Shown piece after piece: positions 4,360 to 56,688 of a stretch of DNA of 64,000 bases. A model generated the notes under the pieces. That model searched no databases. It saw only the letters and a program-made list of their open reading frames with translations, and was not told where the DNA came from. This stretch comes from a virus. The stretch lies in IMG/VR virus record IMGVR_UViG_3300046002_008717, positions 47,729-111,728 of that record; one strand, given 5' to 3'. The stretch's first letter is position 1. Each line of letters opens with the position of its first letter. The translations under genes and the position numbers were made by a program.

Positions 4360-4367
4360 GATATATA
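4360..4367 (+). promoter_or_regulatory. Putative late promoter GATATATA
   Basis: Exact motif 18 nt upstream of ATG 4386; one of 12 copies found upstream of gene starts. Confidence 0.7.
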
Positions 4368-15518: not shown

Positions 15519-17036
15519 ATGGCAGCAAGTGATCCCAAATTAATAGCACAATTACTAGATCTTAGTAGAAGTGTTAGCAGTCTTACATTGGAAGTTAAAA
15601 AAAATACCAATGTAAATTCCTCATTGACAGAAATAAATGAGGACATAAAAGAATCCAATGATATAGGAAAGGTTGCGGACGCTTTAAAAAATATAAATAT
15701 AAAAGACCTAAAATCTGAATTTGGTTCTTTATCCAAAAGTTTAAAGGATCTTGATTTTAATAATATAGCCAAAGAATTAAAAAATATAAATACTAAATCT
15801 GATGTTCTTAAAGATCTTGATATAAAAAAAATATCAGAGGGATTAAATGGATTAAAAAAATTAGATTTTAAAAACATAGCTAAAGATATAGGTAAAGACT
15901 TCGGTAAGGACCTTATTAAAAATGTTGATCTATCTAAAGGAATAGGCGGAATTAAGGATGTAGTTTCTGGATCTATCGGAGGTATAGGTAAAAAATTATT
16001 AGGTGCATTTGAGAACGGTGGGGATGTAAAGAAAAGTGGCAATTATTTGGTCGGAGAAAAAGGTCCGGAAATAGTTGATCTAAAAAAAGGTGCTAATGTT
16101 ATATCAAATAGTAATTTATCAGGGCTTAGCAAAAAAATTAAAGATACCCCAACAGCATCAGAAATAGAGGAAAAAAAGAAAAACCTAATTAAAGAGGATC
16201 CTGAATATTTAAGAGATCCTAAATATTTAGCTGATGAAATTGAATATTACATAGATAGCTACGATAGGAAGAAAAACCAGAAGGCATTTAGTAAAAATGA
16301 CTTTGCGAATTTATTAGCTCCTATTGCTAAGAAAAAAGAGGATGAAAAAATAGCAGGCCCTACGAATAAAAATGTTTTAAAGCCTAAACTAGAAGAGACA
16401 AAAATAGAAAACAATATAGTTACTAAAAAACCAAATCTTCTTTCTAAAATACAGGGAACATTAAATAGCGATGATATATTCAATAATATAACTCCTAATA
16501 AAATAATTGGGGGAGCAGCTAAACTTATAAACAAGAATAATAACCCATTAGTTAAAAACGGTCTTAATATTGCAACTAATCTATTATCTAATAAATCATC
16601 ATTAAAATTTAATGATATTGCTAAGGGTGTAATGAATAATCCAGAAATCAATGCTATTACTAGCAAGATATCTAAGATCGGTGATTTTGGAATAGGTGGG
16701 GGTATTAAAAAAAATCTTACTAAATTATCAATTCCATTAGCATCTAAAAATAATCAGGAAGCCATTCAACCCGATTCTGGTACATCCTCTAATAACAATG
16801 AACAAAAAATACAGGTACCAAATCAAATAAAAAACGAACCTAATTATCAGGAAGTTGCTAAAACTGAAAACGCAGTTAGTACGAAGACAGCAGAGAATGT
16901 ACAATCTGAGGGCTTATCTAAAATTGATGCTGATAATATGATAAGATTATTATCTGAGATGGTTAATTTATTAAAAGGTCCTCTTAGTGTATCTCCGATG
17001 GACTCCCCATTTAGACCAAATTCAAGAAAAGTATAA
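15519..17036 (+). CDS. Tape-measure/baseplate-hub-like tail protein
   Basis: Helical Lys-rich N-terminus plus GAFENGGDV...YLVGEKGPE motif common in tape-measure-type proteins. Follows the chaperone-like pair. Confidence 0.5.
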   Translation: MAASDPKLIAQLLDLSRSVSSLTLEVKKNTNVNSSLTEINEDIKESNDIGKVADALKNINIKDLKSEFGSLSKSLKDLDFNNIAKELKNINTKSDVLKDLDIKKISEGLNGLKKLDFKNIAKDIGKDFGKDLIKNVDLSKGIGGIKDVVSGSIGGIGKKLLGAFENGGDVKKSGNYLVGEKGPEIVDLKKGANVISNSNLSGLSKKIKDTPTASEIEEKKKNLIKEDPEYLRDPKYLADEIEYYIDSYDRKKNQKAFSKNDFANLLAPIAKKKEDEKIAGPTNKNVLKPKLEETKIENNIVTKKPNLLSKIQGTLNSDDIFNNITPNKIIGGAAKLINKNNNPLVKNGLNIATNLLSNKSSLKFNDIAKGVMNNPEINAITSKISKIGDFGIGGGIKKNLTKLSIPLASKNNQEAIQPDSGTSSNNNEQKIQVPNQIKNEPNYQEVAKTENAVSTKTAENVQSEGLSKIDADNMIRLLSEMVNLLKGPLSVSPMDSPFRPNSRKV

Positions 17037-22401: not shown

Positions 22402-22409
22402 GATATATA
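22402..22409 (+). promoter_or_regulatory. Putative late promoter GATATATA
   Basis: Exact motif 22 nt upstream of ATG 22432. Confidence 0.7.
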
Positions 22410-22431: not shown

Positions 22432-25176
22432 ATGGATTTCATAAATCAAGTTAAAAAAGTAAAAGCAATGACAAAATCACCTGAAGTTAAAGCTTTGTGC
22501 GAAAGTTTCCTTAATGGGGAATCAATTTCTAAGGATGAAATAGCATCTACCATAAATGAGGCTATATTATCTGAAGGTATGGAAAATACCGATACCAACG
22601 TACAAGGTATAGATTTAATCAGGAAAGAAGAAAATGAAATTTCTAAAAAATCAGCAGCAGCTCTAATGGAATCTTGGTCTGGAATTGGTAGAGTTTCTTC
22701 AAATAATGCAGGTTCTTATATAGGAAAAAAAGAGCCAGTTAATGAAGATAATGCATTACTTGAAAGTATTTCTAATTTAGCATCTGATGATTCTGTTGCT
22801 AATTCATTTATACAATCACAGGGAGTAAAAAATCTAGGGATTAGAGATGCTATATCTCAAATAAAAGAATCGTCAATATACACATATCCAAAAGCTAAAA
22901 TAGTTTGTGAGCAATATGAAAATTTATTAGATGTTAGAAATATAGGAGAATTTGCATTGATCCACAATTTTATAAATGAGCTTGATGGGTTTATATGGGA
23001 TTCTACTGTATCTGCTATATCTGAAAAATTAAAAGCTACCTCAGATAAACTTAGCAGAGAGATACAAGTTGCATATGTTTTGGAAAGTATTAAAACCAGT
23101 GGTAATTCTTCATTCTATTCAGATTTATCATTAACTTTGAATGAATGGATGGTTTCTGAAAATAAATCTAATGGTCTTTTAGTTAAATCTATTTCTAAAT
23201 TTTCATTTAATCCTGTAGTTAGAAATCTAATAAACTTTTTAAATATCAATGAAAGCACTGATAATAGAAAACTGAATTTACCTGTTAATACTCAAGGTGA
23301 ATCTGGAGTATCTAGCGTGTATTCTCCTGTATTGTTCGAAAATGGGAAAACTTTTTTCTCTATAGGACAAAGTATATTTGAAGCAGATAAAAATGAATTG
23401 AGAAAAATACCTAATGGAGAAATTTCTGAGGTTCCTAGTGATTATATAAAAGTTCTAAAATCTGTTAATAAATCAAATGTTAAAATTAACGAAAATGGAA
23501 TAAGTATACAATTCGGTAAAAAAACTGTTAGATTAACAGAGGAAAATGAAAATGTATCAGTATATCTAGGTAATACTAAATTGAAATTTGGTGATAGCGC
23601 TACATTAGCAAAAATAATAGGACTCGAAGCATCAACATATTTAGGTGTCGATGAATCTATTATAGTTAACGATACTGTTGTATTATATGAAAATTATTCT
23701 AATATAGTTGAATTGGATTTTGCCAAAACTATAACATCAAATATCTATGAAGGTGTTTCTATTAATCTTTTAAAATGGGATAATAAAATATATCTTAATA
23801 GAATAAACGGAACTATGAATGAAAATTCATTCTATAAAGTAAATGGAACACAAGCAGTTTCTATGGTTAAAAAATATATGGGATATGATATCTCTGAAGG
23901 TTTAACAGAATTCTTGGAAGGCGAAAATAAAATAAAATCTATCATGATAAATGATAGAAATAAAATTTTAGAAAATATAACTAAAATAGAAGGCGAAATT
24001 TCAAAAATCCAAAAATTAGTAGAATCTAATGTAATATACAGAAATTCCAAAGAAATATCTGCTGCTAGTATAATGCTAGAAAAAGAATTAGGGATATTGA
24101 AATCTAAATGGAATGATGTAAATAAAGAAATAGTAAAAGTTGAAAAAGATATAGTTGGTATTGATATATCAAATCTTTTCGAAGACGAAAAATTTTCTTT
24201 AGGTTCTTCTATAAAAATTAAAGAATCAGGTGAAACTGGTAAAATAATGTCTATTGATGCTACATCTGGTAGATATACAGTTTTATTAGATAATGGTAAA
24301 ACTTCTAATTTTTTTGTTAATGAAATTAGTGATATAAAAGAAGCTGCTAAAGAGGAGGAGGAAGAAGAAACTAAACCTGCTGAAGATTCAGAAAAAGCTG
24401 CAGATAGTGCCGAAGGTGAAGCTGAAGGCGATGAAGTTAAAGAATCTAATAATCTAAATAAATCGGAATTACCAATATCTGATCAAAAGAAACTATTAAA
24501 AAGTTTTGCTGATTTACATGGATTTGCTAAAGCACCAGGATCGGAAAAATCAGAGATTAAGATAGAATTAGATTCTTTGCATGGTTACAATATAAGTATG
24601 AATGAATCTAAAGAAGTAGTTGTACCAACTTTAGCAAAAGCTCCTGGAAATAGTAATTTAAATAAAGGAAAAGACGAAAGTCCAAAAACTTTGGCAAAAG
24701 CTCCTGGAGATGATAAGAAAGTAAAAGGAAAAACAGTAGGTACTGCATCTTTATCGGAAGCACCTGATGATAGTAACAAAGATGTTAAATTTGATGCCAA
24801 CGATGAGAAAGATACTAAATATCCAATAGGCTATAATATAAAAGAAGGAGCAGTTGCTGATGATACAGTGGAACAAATAATCGATGACGTAACTCCTGAA
24901 GACATAATAGAAATAGCGGAAGATCTAGCTAAAGATCTTGGTGAAACTGAAGAAACAGAAGAAACCGAGGAAACTGAAGAAACTGAAGAAACTGAAGAAA
25001 CTGAAAAGGTAGAGGAAACTGAAGAAACTGAAAAGGTAGAAGAAACCGAAGAAACTGAAAAGGTAGAGGAAACTGAAGAAACAGAAGAAACTGAAGAAAC
25101 TGAAAAGGTAGAGGAAACTGAAGAAACTGAAAAAGTTGAGGAATCAGAAGAAACAGAAGAAGTAAAAAAAAAATAA
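22432..25176 (+). CDS. Large putative prohead core/internal head protein with acidic repeat tail
   Basis: 914 aa with many I/L/V-x-E-S sites (INE, LLES, VLES, INES, MNES), KAPG repeats and EET/EKV repeats. Ends in an A10 run; may be extended by frameshift to 25325. Confidence 0.6.
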   Translation: MDFINQVKKVKAMTKSPEVKALCESFLNGESISKDEIASTINEAILSEGMENTDTNVQGIDLIRKEENEISKKSAAALMESWSGIGRVSSNNAGSYIGKKEPVNEDNALLESISNLASDDSVANSFIQSQGVKNLGIRDAISQIKESSIYTYPKAKIVCEQYENLLDVRNIGEFALIHNFINELDGFIWDSTVSAISEKLKATSDKLSREIQVAYVLESIKTSGNSSFYSDLSLTLNEWMVSENKSNGLLVKSISKFSFNPVVRNLINFLNINESTDNRKLNLPVNTQGESGVSSVYSPVLFENGKTFFSIGQSIFEADKNELRKIPNGEISEVPSDYIKVLKSVNKSNVKINENGISIQFGKKTVRLTEENENVSVYLGNTKLKFGDSATLAKIIGLEASTYLGVDESIIVNDTVVLYENYSNIVELDFAKTITSNIYEGVSINLLKWDNKIYLNRINGTMNENSFYKVNGTQAVSMVKKYMGYDISEGLTEFLEGENKIKSIMINDRNKILENITKIEGEISKIQKLVESNVIYRNSKEISAASIMLEKELGILKSKWNDVNKEIVKVEKDIVGIDISNLFEDEKFSLGSSIKIKESGETGKIMSIDATSGRYTVLLDNGKTSNFFVNEISDIKEAAKEEEEEETKPAEDSEKAADSAEGEAEGDEVKESNNLNKSELPISDQKKLLKSFADLHGFAKAPGSEKSEIKIELDSLHGYNISMNESKEVVVPTLAKAPGNSNLNKGKDESPKTLAKAPGDDKKVKGKTVGTASLSEAPDDSNKDVKFDANDEKDTKYPIGYNIKEGAVADDTVEQIIDDVTPEDIIEIAEDLAKDLGETEETEETEETEETEETEETEKVEETEETEKVEETEETEKVEETEETEETEETEKVEETEETEKVEESEETEEVKKK
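24943..25164 (+). repeat. Coding tandem repeat of 9/18-bp units (EET, EETEKV)
   Basis: GAAGAAACT and GAAAAGGTAGAG units repeated over ~220 bp. Confidence 0.9.
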
Positions 25177-25323
25177 GCACTAACTTTTATTTTACTGATA
25201 GAAGTGCAAAACATTCTGATATAGGTAAAGATTTTTCTAATCCAGGTAATGGAAATTTCCAAAAAGCACCGTCTGGTAAGAAAGAAAATGACATCGAGGA
25301 TGGTATAGATAAACCTAAAAATT

Positions 25324-25360
25324 AAAAAAATGTAGTACTTTTTAGTACTACATTTTTTTT
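25324..25360 (+). terminator. Intrinsic terminator
   Basis: AAAAAAATGTAGTACT-TTTT-AGTACTACATTTTTTTT. Confidence 0.85.
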
Positions 25361-25409: not shown

Positions 25410-25769
25410 ATGGCAAAAGAATATGTAAAAAATAGCGAATTATTAATTGCTATAATAGAATCAAAAGAAAAAGGAGTATTAACTTCCGATACTATAGAAA
25501 TGTTTGATCTTATAATAAATGGGATTTCTAAAAAAATGTCATATAAGGATCCTAACGACAAAGAAGATTGTATGGCATTTGCTATGGAGGATCTTTGTAA
25601 ATATTGGAATAGATTCAATCCTGAAAAATCTAATAATCCATTTTCATATTATACTCAAATAGCTAAAAATGGTTTTGCTAAGGGGTGGAAAAAAATTCAT
25701 CCTCCAAAAAATCCTAAAACTATCCCATTCAGTTATATAACGGGTGATGATAATTCATATAATATCTAA
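25410..25769 (+). CDS. Late-transcription sigma factor (T4 gp55-like)
   Basis: YVKNSELL...FNPEKSNNPFSYYTQIAKN signature of gp55. ATG 25410 preferred over the track's TTG start at 25392. Confidence 0.85.
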   Translation: MAKEYVKNSELLIAIIESKEKGVLTSDTIEMFDLIINGISKKMSYKDPNDKEDCMAFAMEDLCKYWNRFNPEKSNNPFSYYTQIAKNGFAKGWKKIHPPKNPKTIPFSYITGDDNSYNI

Positions 25770-26314: not shown

Positions 26315-27958
26315 ATGGCAGGTTTCATAGATAATAATACTCCGCAGGCATCACCGGTCGTACAAAAGATAAGGGATTCTGTTAAAAAACTTAGCAAATT
26401 TGGAATGAAATACGATGACATGGTTATTCGTAATTCCCAAGCTGTTGGTGTAACCGAAGCAGCGTTCCTAAATAAATCCAAAACAGATGCTGAAGACGAG
26501 AGTATGATTTATACTCTTGCGAAACAGGATATAACATCTAGACAATTTATATCTTATTTTGATAAAGATTATAAAGCAAAGAGAGATTATCTTCGGACAT
26601 TTTCATTGAATCCTGAAATCGAATGGGTATTGGATACTATTTGTGATGAGTCCATATCTTATGATCCTTCTAATTTTTTTGCATATCCTTCATTTATTGA
26701 CTTAAGTAATCTTAATGAGAAAATCAAAGATGATCTATATGAAGTATATAAACAAGTATATGACGTATGGGGATTTAGTGATGATATAACAGCATGGCAA
26801 TATTTTAGACAATTCGTTGTTGAAGGATTTCTTGCGTTTGAGATTGTATACGATAATGATGGAATCAATATCATAGGATTTAAAGAACTTGATGCAATAA
26901 CATTAATTCCTAGTGTAGAAAAACAATTAGACGGATCATATTTAAGTGTATGGATACAATATCCTCAAGATATCAAAAGAAAAAGGATATTATACGAACC
27001 CCAAATTATTTATATGTCCTATGCTAAGGGCAATTCTATATCTAGAGTAAGTTACATGGAAAGATTAATCAGACCATATAATATACTTAGAATAATAGAA
27101 TATACCAGAGTTATTTGGGCAGTTATGAATGCATCTTTTAAATTGAAGATGACTATTCCAATCGGTACAAAATCACAGCAAAAAGGGATGCAAACTCTGG
27201 GTGAGTTAATGAGCATATACAAGGAAGACATACAGCTAAATGACGAAAGCGGAGAGCTTACAGTAGACGGAAGACCAAAAATGCAATTTTATAAAAATTA
27301 TCTTATGCCTTCTGGTGTAAATGGAACACCTACAGTGGAGCCAATAAATACTGAAGGACCTAATTTAAATGATATGCAACCTTTATCATATTTCTTTGAT
27401 AAGTATATACTAGAATCTAAAGTACCCCCGTCCAGGTTTCATAATCCAGATGGTGGTAGTACATCTTCATATTCTAATGGTGCAGAAGGATTAGATAAGG
27501 AAGAAATAAGATTTGCTAAATTCATTTCGAGATTAAGATCTTCATTTCAGGATATTCTTTTAAAACCACTTTGGATACAAATGGTTAAAAAACACGAAGC
27601 CCTTGCTAACGATTTTGCATTCAAAAGTCAGCTAGGATTGGATTATTGGTCTGATAATCCGTTCAAACTAAATCAGGAAATAGCTAAAATGACCTCTAAT
27701 AAGGATGGTATAATTGCTATGGGCGGATTAATGGGTGATGATGAAACCCCATTTTTTTCTAATGGTTTCCTAATAGAATCATATTTGGGATTATCTAAAA
27801 ATGATATCGATGCTAATAAGGAAGCAATAGCTAGAAAGAAAAAAAATAAAAAAACAGCGGGAGCACCTGCATCTGAAGAAGCATCACCAGAAGGTGAAGC
27901 TCCAGAAACAACTCCAGAAACGGAAGGTGCACCTCCAGCTGAACCAGTAACACTTTAA
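26315..27958 (+). CDS. Portal protein, paralog 1 (T4 gp20-like)
   Basis: PEIEWVLDTICDE, FRQFVVEG, SYMERLIRPYNILRIIE, KVPPSRF and EEIRFAKFISRLR match gp20 motifs. Confidence 0.9.
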   Translation: MAGFIDNNTPQASPVVQKIRDSVKKLSKFGMKYDDMVIRNSQAVGVTEAAFLNKSKTDAEDESMIYTLAKQDITSRQFISYFDKDYKAKRDYLRTFSLNPEIEWVLDTICDESISYDPSNFFAYPSFIDLSNLNEKIKDDLYEVYKQVYDVWGFSDDITAWQYFRQFVVEGFLAFEIVYDNDGINIIGFKELDAITLIPSVEKQLDGSYLSVWIQYPQDIKRKRILYEPQIIYMSYAKGNSISRVSYMERLIRPYNILRIIEYTRVIWAVMNASFKLKMTIPIGTKSQQKGMQTLGELMSIYKEDIQLNDESGELTVDGRPKMQFYKNYLMPSGVNGTPTVEPINTEGPNLNDMQPLSYFFDKYILESKVPPSRFHNPDGGSTSSYSNGAEGLDKEEIRFAKFISRLRSSFQDILLKPLWIQMVKKHEALANDFAFKSQLGLDYWSDNPFKLNQEIAKMTSNKDGIIAMGGLMGDDETPFFSNGFLIESYLGLSKNDIDANKEAIARKKKNKKTAGAPASEEASPEGEAPETTPETEGAPPAEPVTL

Positions 27959-27962
27959 TAAT

Positions 27963-29585
27963 ATGGCAGGATTTTTAGATTTCTTAAAACCAAATCAATC
28001 AGCACTAGGTAATATAATAAAAAACTTAGGAGCTGTTGCTAAATTTGGTATGCACTATGATGATATGGTTGTGAAAAATTCACAAGCAATCGGTAAAACA
28101 GAAGCTATGTTTGCTAATCAGGATTCTAGCGGACTTACTTCAAATGATGCTTTTTATTGGACTGCATCATATCAAGATACTAAAGTTAAAAAATATATTG
28201 CTTATTTCGATAGAGAGTACATAGAGAAAAGAAACTATCTTAGAAAATTTTCAATAAACGGAGAAATCGAATTTATCTTGGACGTATTAACAGACGAGGC
28301 TATAGTTTATGACGATAGAAATTATTTTGCATATCCATCTTTTGCAAATTTAGATGTAAAAGACAATATAAAAGAAAAATTGACTTCGCATTATAATAGA
28401 TTATATTCGGTTTTCCAATTTCAAAATACTATACTTGCTTGGCAATATTTTAAACAATTTTTGGTTGATGGATTTCTTGCTTTTGAAATAATATATGATA
28501 ATAAGGGTAAGGAAATAATAGGATTTAAAGAATTGGATCCTTCCTCATTGCAACCAGTCGTAGAAAAGATAAAGGAAAATGAATATAAACAGTTTTGGAT
28601 CCAATATCCAGGTAATCCTCAAATGACCAGGAAAATAACAAATGAACAGATTATTTACATATCATATGCTAAAGGAAATACTATATCAAGAGTTAGTTAT
28701 GTTGAGAGATTAGTTAGGTCGTATAATATATTAAGGATAATGGAGAATTCACGAATTATTTGGAATGTTATGAATTCCTGTTATCGTATGAAATTTATAA
28801 TCCCAATTGGTACGCAATCACAGCAAAAAGCAATGCAAAATCTGGGGCAATTAATGGCTAATTATAAGGAGGATATAACTATAAATGATGCATCTGGTGA
28901 ATTAACTGTTAATGGTAGACCTAAGGTTCAGTTTTATAAAAATTATTTATTTCCTGAAAATAATGGGGTTTCCCCTGAGATATCGTCATTAACCCCATCA
29001 GGCCCAGATTTTAATGTCATGGAAAATGTACTATATTTCTTTAATAAATTAAAGATGGATTCTAAAATACCATATGCTAGATTTGCTTCCAAAAATGGTA
29101 CACCCGCAAATTATCAGATAGCAATAGATCAATTAGAAAGAGACGAAATAAGGTTTGGTAAATTTCTTAGAAGAATTAGATCAATATTCCAAGAATTATT
29201 AATTAAGCCTCTTTATATACAGATGTGTTTAGATCACCCAGAATTAGCAAAGGATAGAGCATTTAAAGCAAATTTGGGCCTTAAGTTTTGTAGCGATAGC
29301 GAATTCGAGGAAATGGTCGAGATGACAAATTTTACAAAACGTAGTGAATTCATTAAAGGACTCGGAGAACTTAAAAATACCGGAACGGTCGCTGAGGGCG
29401 AAGAACCTGATTCATACTTTGATAATGAATTTTTAATACAAAGATTTTTGGGTATGAACTTGGATCAGTTGAAAAGTAACGAAAGATATAAAAAGGAAGA
29501 AGCTGCTGCAGGAAAGAAAAAAGAAGAACCAGAGGAGGAACCAGAAAAGGGAACAGGAAAGGAAACTCCAAAGGTAACATTATAA
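27963..29585 (+). CDS. Portal protein, paralog 2 (T4 gp20-like)
   Basis: GEIEFILDVLTDEA, FKQFLVDG, SYVERLVRSYNILRIME, KIPYARF, RDEIRFGKFLRRIR. Intact and full length. Confidence 0.9.
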   Translation: MAGFLDFLKPNQSALGNIIKNLGAVAKFGMHYDDMVVKNSQAIGKTEAMFANQDSSGLTSNDAFYWTASYQDTKVKKYIAYFDREYIEKRNYLRKFSINGEIEFILDVLTDEAIVYDDRNYFAYPSFANLDVKDNIKEKLTSHYNRLYSVFQFQNTILAWQYFKQFLVDGFLAFEIIYDNKGKEIIGFKELDPSSLQPVVEKIKENEYKQFWIQYPGNPQMTRKITNEQIIYISYAKGNTISRVSYVERLVRSYNILRIMENSRIIWNVMNSCYRMKFIIPIGTQSQQKAMQNLGQLMANYKEDITINDASGELTVNGRPKVQFYKNYLFPENNGVSPEISSLTPSGPDFNVMENVLYFFNKLKMDSKIPYARFASKNGTPANYQIAIDQLERDEIRFGKFLRRIRSIFQELLIKPLYIQMCLDHPELAKDRAFKANLGLKFCSDSEFEEMVEMTNFTKRSEFIKGLGELKNTGTVAEGEEPDSYFDNEFLIQRFLGMNLDQLKSNERYKKEEAAAGKKKEEPEEEPEKGTGKETPKVTL

Positions 29586-41246: not shown

Positions 41247-43217
41247 ATGTATAAAATGTCAATAAATAAAATGTTAAACGAGAATTTGGTTTTTATTCTA
41301 GATAGACAAACTTCTATCCTGGAATCAACTAAGATTGATTCTGAGCATTATGTACTGGAAGGTACGGCTGCTGTTTTCGGAAAGGAAAACAACAATGCAA
41401 GAATTTACGAAGAAGCAGAATATCTACCTCATCTAAATTATCTTAATGAGAAAATAGCTCAAAGAAGATTAGTTGGTGAATTAGATCACCCTGAGAAATT
41501 TGACGTTTCGCTTAAAAACATTTCACATATAATAGAAGGTCTTAATTACGATAAGGATACAAGAGAATTAAAAATAAAAGTTAGACTTTTAGATACCCCG
41601 ATGGGTTTAATAGCTAAAAATCTTGTTGATGCTGGTGTACCTTTATCTATATCATCTAGAGCTGCTGGATCAGTAGGTAATGATAAAAAGGTAATGATCA
41701 AAAAAATATTTACATATGATCTAGTTGCTGATCCTGGTTTTCAAGATGCCCAACTAGGTAGAGTATATGAAAGCGTTGGATATTCATCGGAAGATTTCTC
41801 TAATATTAAGGATAAAGATGTAACTAATAACTTATTTTGTTTAAATGAGCAATTGGGTCTAAAAAATGAATCTGGTATGAAGATATATAAAGTTGAAAAT
41901 AACGAGGAATTTAATAAACTCGTATCGACATTGGACAAAAATAAACAAACACTCATGGAGAATAATGAATTCGTTACTACTGAAGATCTTAATGGATATT
42001 CAATCTTTCTAAAAAAAGAAATGGATGCTATGAATACCAAGATTTCTGAACTTAAAGAGTCAAAGGAATCATTAACTGAATCAGCTATAGAAGATAGAAA
42101 TACAGAATTAGAAGAAAGAGTTATTAAATTAGAAAAATATTCTGAATATTTAGCTGAAAATCTGGACAATGCTATTAAATACGGAGAATATCTTGCAAAA
42201 AATTTAGATGAAAGTATTAACTATAGTAAATATCTTGCTGAAAATTTAGATACTAATATTACATATACTAAATCTGTTGATGAAAATGTAACTAAAGGAA
42301 TTTCTTATTCTGAATATGTTGCAGAAAGTGTTGATAGAAGTATAGAATATTCCAAATATCTTGCTGAGAAAGTTGATCAGAATATACAATATTCTGAATA
42401 CATAGGTGAAAATTTAGAAAAAGGAATAGCTTATAGCGAATATCTAGGTGAGAATTTAGAAAAAGGAATAGCTTATACCGAGTATCTTGCAGAAAATTTA
42501 AATAATGGAATTAAAAAGACTGAAGCATTAGATGAGACAGTTAATAAAAATATACAATATGCTAATTATTTAGCAGAAAATGTTAACAAAGGTTTGGATT
42601 ATTCCGAATATATTTCAGAGAGATTAACAAAATCTATTTCATATACTGAATATATAAGTGAAAGTATAAATACTAACACTATGAAACCAAGTGAAACATT
42701 AAGAGAAGGCGTAGAACTTTCATCTGAAGCAGGATTAAACGAATCTGGTTTTGGTGGAGATTATACAGATCTTACAAGTAAAATAGATAATTTGATAGAA
42801 TCAGTTAAAACACAAAAAACTGAATCAGATATAAATGAAGCTTCTAATAAAATGAAGCAAGTAGCCAATACACAAGAGGCTAAAGAAGAAGAAGTTCTTA
42901 ACGAAAAGGAAAACACTAATAAAACTGGACTTAAGTTTATAGACGAAATTCCTGAAGATTATGCTAAAGTATGGGAATCACTTACAGATGGTCACAAGCA
43001 ATCAATTATTGCTCAAAGCCACACCTGGAATTTAGATACACCATACCAGATCAGAAACTTCTGGTCAACACGTCAACTTGGAACAGCTCCAATAGGGGTT
43101 CAAAAATTAGACGAGAATGAAAACACGGAAATATCCAATACACCAACATTAGGTTATAGCAACGATTATATGGCTGCTATCGCTTCAGCATTGGATAAAA
43201 AATTCCAAATAAGATAA
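41247..43217 (+). CDS. Prohead protease (gp21-like) fused to a scaffold/core domain
   Basis: NNNARIY, GELDHP, ISHII, LDTPMG, ISSRAAG, TYDLVADPGF. Followed by a coiled-coil region with 14-aa repeats. Confidence 0.92.
   Translation: MYKMSINKMLNENLVFILDRQTSILESTKIDSEHYVLEGTAAVFGKENNNARIYEEAEYLPHLNYLNEKIAQRRLVGELDHPEKFDVSLKNISHIIEGLNYDKDTRELKIKVRLLDTPMGLIAKNLVDAGVPLSISSRAAGSVGNDKKVMIKKIFTYDLVADPGFQDAQLGRVYESVGYSSEDFSNIKDKDVTNNLFCLNEQLGLKNESGMKIYKVENNEEFNKLVSTLDKNKQTLMENNEFVTTEDLNGYSIFLKKEMDAMNTKISELKESKESLTESAIEDRNTELEERVIKLEKYSEYLAENLDNAIKYGEYLAKNLDESINYSKYLAENLDTNITYTKSVDENVTKGISYSEYVAESVDRSIEYSKYLAEKVDQNIQYSEYIGENLEKGIAYSEYLGENLEKGIAYTEYLAENLNNGIKKTEALDETVNKNIQYANYLAENVNKGLDYSEYISERLTKSISYTEYISESINTNTMKPSETLREGVELSSEAGLNESGFGGDYTDLTSKIDNLIESVKTQKTESDINEASNKMKQVANTQEAKEEEVLNEKENTNKTGLKFIDEIPEDYAKVWESLTDGHKQSIIAQSHTWNLDTPYQIRNFWSTRQLGTAPIGVQKLDENENTEISNTPTLGYSNDYMAAIASALDKKFQIR
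42138..42675 (+). repeat. ~13 coding tandem repeats of 14 aa (42 bp), consensus YSEYLAENLDKGIx
   Basis: YSEYLAENLDNAIK, YGEYLAKNLDESIN, YSKYLAENLDTNIT ... YTEYISESINT. Confidence 0.85.
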
Positions 43218-47317: not shown

Positions 47318-49792
47318 ATGAATAAGAATCCACAAATAAACAATCCAGTAGCTAAAAATTTATTAGATAGCTACAATTACGGTAAACTTTTTGAAAACGA
47401 ATTAGTCGATGCACTATTAAATAAAATAACTGCTAATGCTTTGGAGGTTTTCAAAATACTTATATTTGATATAGCACCAAAAAGGGATAGGAATCCAGAA
47501 GCTACCAGAGCCAAATTATCACTTATGGCTAATGCTAAAAATGTAAAAGAATTATCTTCTATATTAACTAATGATACTATGGATGTTGATGTGGTAAATT
47601 CTAAATATTCGGAAGCAAAAAGATTATATCAGCTTTCACTTGAGAAGTTTGCAGAAGCTTTAGAAAGAGGAGTAGAGATAAGTAAAGAAAAAGAAGAAGG
47701 CATACTCGCATACGCTAAGAATGCGGCACAAAAATTACAAAACTCATTTGACAATAGGGCTAAAGAATATCAAGCTGAATTGGATAGTAAAACACAGAAC
47801 AGCTCAGAAGAATCTTTCTATTTCAGTGACGATATCCTTAATGAAAATGGATTATTTACCGGATATAAAGGTAGAGTCGATTCATTGAGAAAAATGCTAG
47901 TAAATTTAATAAGCTCAGCTGAAGGTAAGGATGGTAAAAATGGGTATGGTAGAGATTGGAAGAGAACTTTTCTTGATCTTGATGAGAAAAGAAAAGCATT
48001 AGATAACGGAAGAGGCGGATTTGGTGAAAAGGACAAAAGATCACTAGATGAACTTGAAAAACAAGTAGATAAATTTAGACTTGATTTTTTAACTGCATCC
48101 AATAAATCTATAGATAATGATTTATTGAAAATTCAAAATGATGAGGAGATCAAAGGATCATATTCGGATGTTACTGATTTAACAACAGAGGCACTCGAAC
48201 TTAAAACTAGGGCTGATGCACAAAGAAATATTGCAATAGGCGAGATAGGTGATGACCATAAGACGAAGGAAGGTGATTTTATTAAAACCTTATTTCCGCT
48301 TAAAAGAGGTGATACCGATGCTGATGATAAAATAAAAGAAAGCGGATTAATAGCAGCTATACAAACAGCTATTGCTAATGGTATTAAATCAGCAGGTACT
48401 TTGTTGAGATCTAAAGGAGGTCCTAATGGTAAATATGGTCCTGCTACTACATCTATAATAGCCACTATACAAAAATCTGTAGGTAATAAGAATACTAATG
48501 GTAGTTTAGATCAAGCACTATTGGATGATATTATATCATCTGACTGGGTTTCTGAAAAAGATAAAGCAGCCATACAAAAATCTTTGGATATAATAAGAGG
48601 TAAAATGCACGAAAGTAATACTGGTGTTATGAAATTTGGTGATTTTCTTAATATAACTATAAACGAATCTAAGATAATAATAAACAATTCAGATTTCGAA
48701 AAGGAACTAGCAAACCAATATAAAGATATAACAGGTAATGATATGACACGTGCAGCTTCTAATAAAATAGGGGACAATGAGGGTGACGATATTACAGGAT
48801 CTGCAGGGAAAGAAGTAGATAAACTTGCTTCTTCTCTTAGAAAAAATTATAATTTAAAAGTTGAGGGTAGTGACTTTATCAGAAATGATGGATCATTAAA
48901 ACCTGCATATGATACTAAATTCATAAAAGCATGGAATTCAGCTTTAGCTGCTACCGCAGAAAACCCAAAAGATTATTCATATTTCTTTTTTAATAACGGT
49001 TTATATAATATCAATCTTGCTAGCACATCATTAAAGTTTCCTTGTAACTGGGAAAGATTTGAAAAACTGGATGAAAGTGATGATCCATTAGTATTTTTTA
49101 ATAACTATCTTAAAGGGTGGGCAACTTTTGGTATGATCAGACCAGCTGAAAGATATAACGGAATAAATTCCATATTGGGAATGAAGGATAAATTAAAATT
49201 GCCTGGAGTATACAATAAGATGGATTTAACTATAGTTAATAAGGTAACACCGTTTATAAAATTTGATGATTTAAAAGGTGGTATTAAAGAAGCATTCAGA
49301 ATACTTACCGATGATGATGATTGGGGAGGAAATGAATTTGTAGCATTTAATAATTTATTGGTTTCTGTTGCTAATGCTATATCATTTGATGGTGAAAAAT
49401 TTATAAGCTGTTTAAAATGGCTAAATGACGATGAGCTTAAATACAAAACAGAAAAAATAGCTAGTGATTCCATAATTACTAGTACATCCTCCGATACTGG
49501 TAAGGTCGTACTCGGTTTTGCTGGTAGCAAAATAATAAATAATACAGTAGCTTCGTACGAGAATATAGAAATAAAAAGAGGTTTAAAATCTCATAAGGAT
49601 GTTAGCAGTTTGGATCCATTTCTTAATTACGGAGGTAATAGGGGACAAAGAAAAGCATTATGTAAAAATTGTGAATATATTGGGTCCGAGATATATCCAG
49701 GAATCAAAGTACATTTACAAAGAATGAACATGGTGAAATTTTCAGATTTCCCTAATGACAGTAAAGGGTTTAAGTGTAAGGAGATTAAATAA
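47318..49792 (+). CDS. Large protein with a peptidoglycan-binding-like segment, possibly virion-internal
   Basis: PLKRGD...IQ.AI...NGKYGPATTSIIATIQ...NG resembles PG_binding_1; internal MKFGDFLNITINES motif. Confidence 0.55.
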   Translation: MNKNPQINNPVAKNLLDSYNYGKLFENELVDALLNKITANALEVFKILIFDIAPKRDRNPEATRAKLSLMANAKNVKELSSILTNDTMDVDVVNSKYSEAKRLYQLSLEKFAEALERGVEISKEKEEGILAYAKNAAQKLQNSFDNRAKEYQAELDSKTQNSSEESFYFSDDILNENGLFTGYKGRVDSLRKMLVNLISSAEGKDGKNGYGRDWKRTFLDLDEKRKALDNGRGGFGEKDKRSLDELEKQVDKFRLDFLTASNKSIDNDLLKIQNDEEIKGSYSDVTDLTTEALELKTRADAQRNIAIGEIGDDHKTKEGDFIKTLFPLKRGDTDADDKIKESGLIAAIQTAIANGIKSAGTLLRSKGGPNGKYGPATTSIIATIQKSVGNKNTNGSLDQALLDDIISSDWVSEKDKAAIQKSLDIIRGKMHESNTGVMKFGDFLNITINESKIIINNSDFEKELANQYKDITGNDMTRAASNKIGDNEGDDITGSAGKEVDKLASSLRKNYNLKVEGSDFIRNDGSLKPAYDTKFIKAWNSALAATAENPKDYSYFFFNNGLYNINLASTSLKFPCNWERFEKLDESDDPLVFFNNYLKGWATFGMIRPAERYNGINSILGMKDKLKLPGVYNKMDLTIVNKVTPFIKFDDLKGGIKEAFRILTDDDDWGGNEFVAFNNLLVSVANAISFDGEKFISCLKWLNDDELKYKTEKIASDSIITSTSSDTGKVVLGFAGSKIINNTVASYENIEIKRGLKSHKDVSSLDPFLNYGGNRGQRKALCKNCEYIGSEIYPGIKVHLQRMNMVKFSDFPNDSKGFKCKEIK

Positions 49793-56412: not shown

Positions 56413-56688
56413 ATGAGCAATAGAAAAGAAAGAAGATTGATGCTTAAGCAATTAGGTATTTTAAATCTTAATAAAAAAAAACCAAGCGATGTTGGTGCTA
56501 ATATAGAAAAGGGTAAAAATTTGCATCGTCAATATTTACAGAATGTAAAGAATGAGGATAATAGAAAAAATTCAGTAGAAAATACAGACAATGCTTCATT
56601 TTTTAGCGAAAATATTGATGATAAATATTCATCTTTTCAATCATTGTTAATGAAAAAAAATTGGGACGAACCCGAATCCAATACCTAG
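56413..56688 (+). CDS. Small basic hypothetical protein
   Basis: MSNRKERR N-terminus. Confidence 0.65.
   Translation: MSNRKERRLMLKQLGILNLNKKKPSDVGANIEKGKNLHRQYLQNVKNEDNRKNSVENTDNASFFSENIDDKYSSFQSLLMKKNWDEPESNT

Follow-up and report, generated by a model that had tools for sequence, protein, structure and literature searches.

Several described genes yield two products through a -1 shift or slippage at a defined site. The Escherichia coli dnaX shift relies on an upstream Shine-Dalgarno (SD)-like element together with a downstream stem-loop, and the insA-insB' frameshift of the insertion sequence IS1 takes place at A6C and is not known to require strong downstream structure. For the capsid gene of phage T7 (10A/10B), Condron, Atkins and Gesteland are said to have described in 1991 a frameshift that gives a minority of molecules a -1 extension of about 50 residues. 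Conserved -1 recoding produces lambda gpG/gpGT, and other tail assembly chaperones, at a fixed ratio of two products, and in Thermus thermophilus dnaX (tau/gamma) transcriptional slippage on a 9-nucleotide (nt) homopolymer gives mixed mRNAs and two C-terminal isoforms with no need for RNA structure (both PMC5009743). Here we analyze a 64,000-nt stretch of viral DNA with a G+C content of 30.5% (hereafter the window; positions 47,729 to 111,728 of IMG/VR virus record IMGVR_UViG_3300046002_008717, which comprises 111,728 bases and is estimated to be about 39% complete). In it, ten consecutive A's at the 3' end of a gene for a 914-residue protein are very probably a functional recoding site, operating by slippage or by frameshift, that would append a conserved C-terminal tail to part of the product.

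An A10 run joins two open frames

The open reading frame (ORF) at 22432-25176 on the + strand encodes 914 residues, read here as the short isoform, and its 3' end is GAA GTA AAA AAA AAA TAA. The A10 slip site occupies 25164-25173 of the + strand and contains an in-phase A_AAA_AAA (relatives have T-A9-[C/G]), with the zero-frame stop TAA (25174-25176) directly 3' of it. Read in the -1 frame, three lysines are followed by 50 open codons, from ATA at 25173 to AAT at 25320-25322, and a stop at 25323-25325, so that the extension spans 25173-25325 of the + strand; its translation begins I-S-T-N-F-Y-F and runs through F-Q-K-A-P-S-G-K to the stop. An earlier note on this DNA, made from the letters alone, had pointed out this layout, and the coordinates came out the same when derived anew. 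The note had also seen in FQKAPSG a further copy of a repeat from the upstream protein, which is indeed present as an x-A-P-G/D motif, and had placed a terminator at the second stop rather than the first. A terminator-like hairpin of 16 bp with A/T runs on both flanks (25324-25359) does start at the extension's stop, and relatives have a hairpin after the extension in the same arrangement.

The A10 run is the sole run of at least nine A's that joins two long open frames anywhere in the 111.7-kb record. Such runs are rarer in the window than in shuffled sequence, with 5 overlapping matches against 13.4 expected. Two other candidates were examined and rejected. An A9 at window positions 56473-56481 (AAT AAA AAA AAA CCA) lies inside a 91-residue ORF (56413-56688), and because both alternative frames are shut there at once, a slip would merely truncate the product. 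Another A9, at record position 42872 (4.9 kb 5' of the window), belongs to an A-rich leader between genes and is no recoding site; it overlaps the stop of a 1416-residue ORF, and the next gene's own ATG follows 8 nt on.

Relatives keep the run, the stop and the second frame

The earlier note had held a homopolymer error in assembly or sequencing to be the main alternative, meaning that the true sequence would be A11 and would encode one continuous ORF with no recoding, and A10 runs are error-prone on some sequencing platforms. A scan of IMG/VR with the 914-residue protein gave 43 loci at 50-62% identity, drawn from many different metagenomes, and in 34 of them an A9 run adjoins the stop at the gene end. 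The run, the stop and the -1 extension, whose persistence in relatives the note had singled out as informative, are all kept in 33 loci of the window's own clade, which read [G/T]TA AAA AAA AA[C/G] TAA G and carry a -1 tail of about 52 residues (77 in one). These loci reduce to 25 unique site sequences, or 26 with one (L139) from a later scan. Their tails start [L/V]-S-R-N-F-Y-F-A-P-K, continue with G-K-L-S-K-A-P-[D/T]-G-K and finish in an acidic end.

The window aligns to these 26 unique sites without a gap and at the same length, and has A where they have C or G. With one base changed and none gained or lost, its A10 arose by substitution and not by an insertion or deletion. Furthermore, its stop and tail stand in the same register as those of the relatives, so that an A11 would make the window phage the exception. 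The out-of-frame layout is also repeated across dozens of assemblies made independently, and two further clades, described below, share it. A few relatives do have the tail in frame, which speaks for an error, but the zero-frame stop is itself selected (see below), and we regard an error in the window as extremely improbable.

The zero-frame stop of own-clade relatives is TAA, and once TAG (L139), except in the P0108/P0116 sub-clade, where it lies 12 codons further or the tail is in frame. Two loci (L027 and L034) carry A9 followed by CC and require a -1 shift, with a zero-frame stop 12 codons later. In four contigs closely related to these two, from four metagenomes (L096, L097, L099 and L131), the tail is in frame within an 876-residue ORF. 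A9 nevertheless persists there in the same phase, so that either one added A or a -1 shift would yield a short form of 830 residues. In a further locus, L035 (IMGVR_UViG_3300008113_006113), the gene is split mid-way, the zero frame ending after 463 codons and the -1 frame running for 317; since this break has no A run, the locus probably reflects either an error of assembly or a pseudogene.

Outside these metagenomic loci, a DNA search of a phage collection returned no near match to the window, and tblastn returned only weak relatives, LR756500 (an uncultured huge phage) and Prevotella Lak megaphages, neither of which has an A-run site; the LR756500 homologue has a normal gene end. Prevotella phage Lak-A1 (MK250016.1 52991-59454) is a family member at 23% identity (E = 3e-17), likewise with no A-run site, and its homologue stays open for 1222 codons, or for over 1500 with read-through of TAG.

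The tail and the first stop are under selection

In the tail frame, codon-position entropy is 0.64/0.43/1.26 for the three positions. Nei-Gojobori dN/dS over the first 36 tail codons is 0.11 in this frame, whereas the two remaining frames give 1.7 and 1.9. None of 27 sites (25 own-clade relatives, one site from the second clade and the window) has an ATG, GTG or TTG between the last -1-frame stop, which lies 5-16 codons upstream of the run, and the tail. Taken together, these sequence comparisons indicate that the tail is real coding sequence without a start of its own, very probably reached through recoding.

A different explanation would take the tail for a remnant in decay, or for a small ORF translated separately, and would give the A run no function. 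The window tail's identity to the relatives' consensus, merely about 40%, is in keeping with this, but neither the low dN/dS nor the lack of a start codon in any relative is, and the terminator follows the tail instead of the first stop. The retention of A9 in the phages whose tail is in frame is a further point against it. We consider this explanation very unlikely, and even when it is pooled with the error explanation the two command only a small share of the probability.

The sites also bear marks of selection on the first stop. Tail codon 1 is CTA, GTA or ATA, so that the residue varies (L, V or I) and the letters TA are fixed, and tail codon 2 is AGT or AGC, with TCN absent even though AGY accounts for just 28% of Ser codons. 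In L139, where the stop is TAG, tail codon 2 has changed to GGT. The fixed TA in codon 1 and the preference for AGY in codon 2 argue that the zero-frame stop is itself under selection.

The site recurs at other positions in the family

Two more distant clades carry a comparable site. The first of these, clade 2 (L040 and L046, about 32% identity), reads GCA AAA AAA AAG TAA at the zero-frame end, and its -1 tail of 80-83 residues is different from that of the window's clade and conserved between L040 and L046. We dropped the idea that this tail is an ancestral helical end module, as its match to the C-terminus of P0140 is not significant (E = 1.6). A scan with the L040 protein gave no further clade-2 members, and one with P0198 gave nothing in viral contigs.

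Clade 3 emerged from a profile search of 1.84 billion cluster representatives, with loci taken from metagenome contigs. Its zero-frame proteins have about 525 residues, and 36 loci have an A-run near the zero-frame stop (A9 in 28, A10 in six and A8 in two). The base directly after the run is G in 35 of them and C in one, the stop lies 0-2 codons past the run in 35, and where the contig is long enough the -1 frame stays open for some 205-217 codons. Visual inspection of the neighboring residues suggests that the run falls within an SH3-like domain, although the pairwise match to the window protein is not significant. The -1 product has homologues in the C-termini, encoded in frame, of the family members P0195 (E = 2e-5) and P0136 (E = 7e-7), so the long form of clade 3 is the ancestral full-length protein. 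One clade-3 locus, L070 (Ga0214923_10017200), has A8 only and its conserved tail in the +1 frame, open for 146 codons; this reflects either an assembly error in the homopolymer or natural variation, in which case one A would have to be lost.

The distribution of the A-run across these clades indicates that the site is older than the window's own clade. The run stands at three positions: the window's clade has it at the very end of the protein, clade 2 has it ahead of a tail of 80 residues, and in clade 3 it apparently sits inside the SH3-like domain. As a more tentative and somewhat doubtful proposal, the nine-A run may be a portable isoform switch, placed at no fewer than three non-homologous positions within one family, through which RNA polymerase slippage would be tuned across the lineage for late-gene stoichiometry.

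Polymerase slippage and ribosomal frameshifting as routes to the long form

Standard decoding would stop at the TAA at 25174-25176 and give the 914-residue form, whereas a one-base backward shift on the run would carry a fraction of the product into the -1 frame, to about 964 residues. We take RNA polymerase slippage to be the main route, with a probability of about 0.5: the polymerase would stutter on the 9-10 A:T hybrid, as in T. thermophilus dnaX, so that some of the transcripts gain one A. A -1 slip of the ribosome on the A_AAA_AAN heptamer, which is in phase, probably contributes with the aid of the adjacent stop, and for the window both routes yield an identical protein. The long form would have one additional x-A-P-x-G-K motif and a charged end, and transcription would end directly after it. 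That both isoforms are made is something we infer from the pattern of conservation, as are their ratio and the machine that slips.

Several features of the site point to the polymerase. The run has 9 or 10 A's in all but two of about 60 unique sites, that is, three A's beyond what a heptamer requires. Both Lys codons upstream are invariably AAA, even though 21% of Lys codons are AAG, and the codon before the run has seven different identities, every one ending in A. Runs of nine A's or nine T's are known to support efficient slippage in vivo in bacteria (Atkins et al. 2016, PMC5009743). The earlier note had proposed a stimulatory hairpin at about 25177-25207; this hairpin does appear in the minimum-free-energy fold, but the role assigned to it finds no support, as this fold is no better than that of shuffled sequence (z = -0.36) and the hairpin is not conserved in 13 relatives. 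RNAalifold found no consensus pairs among the 13 sequences, either downstream or upstream of the run, Rfam gave no frameshift element, and no SD-like element upstream of the run is consistent among the sites. A run of nine or ten A's without a conserved RNA structure slightly favors polymerase slippage.

Other features point to the ribosome. In programmed -1 frameshifting, Lys (and Asn) tRNAs would re-pair one base back while the adjacent stop slows the ribosome, and the mRNA would stay colinear with the DNA. In line with this, the heptamer (A_AAA_AAA in the window, A_AAA_AAC or A_AAA_AAG in relatives) is correctly phased at every one of the roughly 60 unique sites except two, and the zero-frame stop is conserved directly at the site or 1-2 codons past it. 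Three observations weigh against polymerase slippage as the whole account. First, the base after the run in relatives is C or G and never T, despite the fact that AAT accounts for 83% of Asn and TTA for 46% of Leu codons; this base looks selected, which slippage by the polymerase alone does not explain. Second, the G that follows the run in 35 of the 36 clade-3 loci creates the bacterial heptamer A_AAA_AAG, always in phase. Third, locus L071, with just A8-G, still requires a -1 shift. The choice of base and the A8-G of L071 together favor a ribosomal contribution.

As a main route, however, ribosomal frameshifting lacks a conserved stimulatory structure on either side of the run or a consistent SD-like element, and the heptamer leaves the invariance of the three extra A's unexplained. 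In E. coli, ribosomes shift far less readily on A_AAA_AAC and A_AAA_AAA than on A_AAA_AAG (PMC5009743), and in Bacteroidia, to which the hosts probably belong, ribosomes make no use of SD pairing (PMC10798248). We therefore treat the ribosome as a credible principal agent whose chances nonetheless fall below even. What probability remains goes to both routes contributing equally, or to another explanation.

The protein and its surroundings

The family is widespread: one search gave 276 homologues, and a second gave 333 cluster representatives. An AlphaFold2 model of the 914-residue form (mean predicted local distance difference test score, pLDDT, 66) has a helical N-terminal third, a beta-rich domain (residues 291-470), a coiled-coil hairpin (499-575), an SH3/Tudor-like domain (593-634) and a disordered C-terminal region from about residue 650. 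The disordered region holds 3-10 copies of [L/F/M]-x-x-A-P-[G/D/E], to which the tail contributes more. K, E, D, S or A can precede A-P, so the motif does not match a strict T4-type x-x-E protease site. An acidic tandem repeat with a 27-nt period (24943-25161, + strand, about eight copies of the E-T-E-E-T-E-K-V type) reaches up to the slip site; none of the 121 nearest relatives listed has such a repeat.

Neither Pfam nor PHROGs assigned a named family to the 914-residue protein or to any of 17 relatives tested, apart from weak SH3-like/ABC_tran_CTD matches and a PG_binding_1 insert in P0116. The protein has no match among the sequences of solved structures and no named family in the ESM Atlas. 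Foldseek against the PDB matched only the small SH3/Tudor-like domain, and against BFVD it matched uncharacterised myovirus proteins, including those of Tenacibaculum phages PTm1 and pT24. The earlier note had proposed two C-terminal isoforms of a head core protein. Recoding into two isoforms has the comparative support given above, but the head core label finds no Pfam, PHROG or structure match, and the Pfam and PHROG scans detected no sequence or profile similarity to the T4-type head core and internal proteins gp22, IPI-III, gp67/68 or Alt. In the sub-clade P0116-P0118, a PG_binding_1 domain (PF01471) is inserted in the N-terminal helical region (residues about 125-174, E = 3.7e-13), which hints that the protein may meet the cell wall.

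A motif resembling a late promoter, GATATATA, lies at 22402-22409 on the + strand, 23 nt 5' of the ATG. The window contains 15 copies, all on the + strand (for instance at 4360, 9550, 15504, 20270, 22402 and 26286), a total not above chance (16.0 in shuffles). The motif is probably a late promoter, read with a gp55-like sigma factor. With this motif on its 5' side and the hairpin at the second stop, the gene and its extension together resemble a single late transcription unit, as far as sequence features can tell.

The neighboring genes are T4-like and include a large terminase, a tail sheath, two tube paralogues, a dCMP deaminase, an extracytoplasmic function (ECF)-type sigma factor and an exonuclease, with a weak tape-measure-like ORF at 15519-17036, 5.4 kb upstream of the 914-residue gene. 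The next gene downstream, at 25410-25769 on the + strand, encodes a gp55-like late sigma factor, and a gp55-like gene also directly follows the extension in clade 2 (L046). Further downstream come a gp4-like head completion protein, two portal paralogues and a DNA ligase. The portal genes are full-length paralogues of the T4 type (gp20, PF07230), arranged in tandem at 26315-27958 and 27963-29585, 4 nt apart. These uncultured giant T4-like phages probably infect Bacteroidota (Bacteroidia). Given the promoter-like motif and the structural-gene surroundings, the 914-residue protein is probably a late, virion-associated gene product, and the evidence supports nothing more specific.

Comparison with known recoding systems

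The long isoform would be easy to overlook: gene callers annotate the short form only, and the long one is missing from every database entry of the family. The recoding site marks the C-terminal dosage of the 914-residue protein as something that would matter to the phage. The family is also a natural experiment, in which C, G or A follows the run, run lengths range from A8 to A10, tails lie in or out of frame and the site takes three positions, all in SD-independent hosts of the Bacteroidota type; this variation could separate slippage from frameshifting.

Full-text literature searches found no paper describing recoding in this phage gene family. Recoding devices of this type are known already; the novelty lies in the gene family, in how broadly and deeply the site is conserved, in its varied positions and in the in-frame variant that keeps the run.

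Among the described systems, T. thermophilus dnaX resembles the window's family in having a homopolymer run of nine within coding sequence, and the in-frame variant (L096) has its polarity too, as a slip there would lead to a shorter form. Unlike that cellular replication gene, the gene studied here is a phage late gene, a slip would lengthen the product in most of the phages, and slippage itself is deduced from the sites. Like E. coli dnaX, both of the more distant clades have A_AAA_AAG in phase, as do some phages of the window's clade, and one gene would give two isoforms; the upstream SD-like element and downstream stem-loop of dnaX (PMC4344849) are not conserved here, and the run is A9-10 rather than A6. 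With T7 10A/10B the locus shares a late phage protein with a C-terminal -1 extension of about 50 residues, but the T7 protein is the major capsid protein and its shift site is not poly-A, whereas the site here is a poly-A run. With IS1 it shares an A-run followed by C as shift site, but the run here is longer, and the IS1 gene encodes a transposase. Lambda gpG/gpGT likewise shows conserved -1 recoding in a late gene of a tailed phage. We rejected a G/GT-type tail assembly chaperone as the identity of our protein, which has 914 residues, is followed by gp55 and has its weak tape-measure-like ORF 5.4 kb upstream; the lambda-type chaperones are small genes directly upstream of the tape-measure gene, whereas the protein described here lies near gp55 and the portal and has another architecture.

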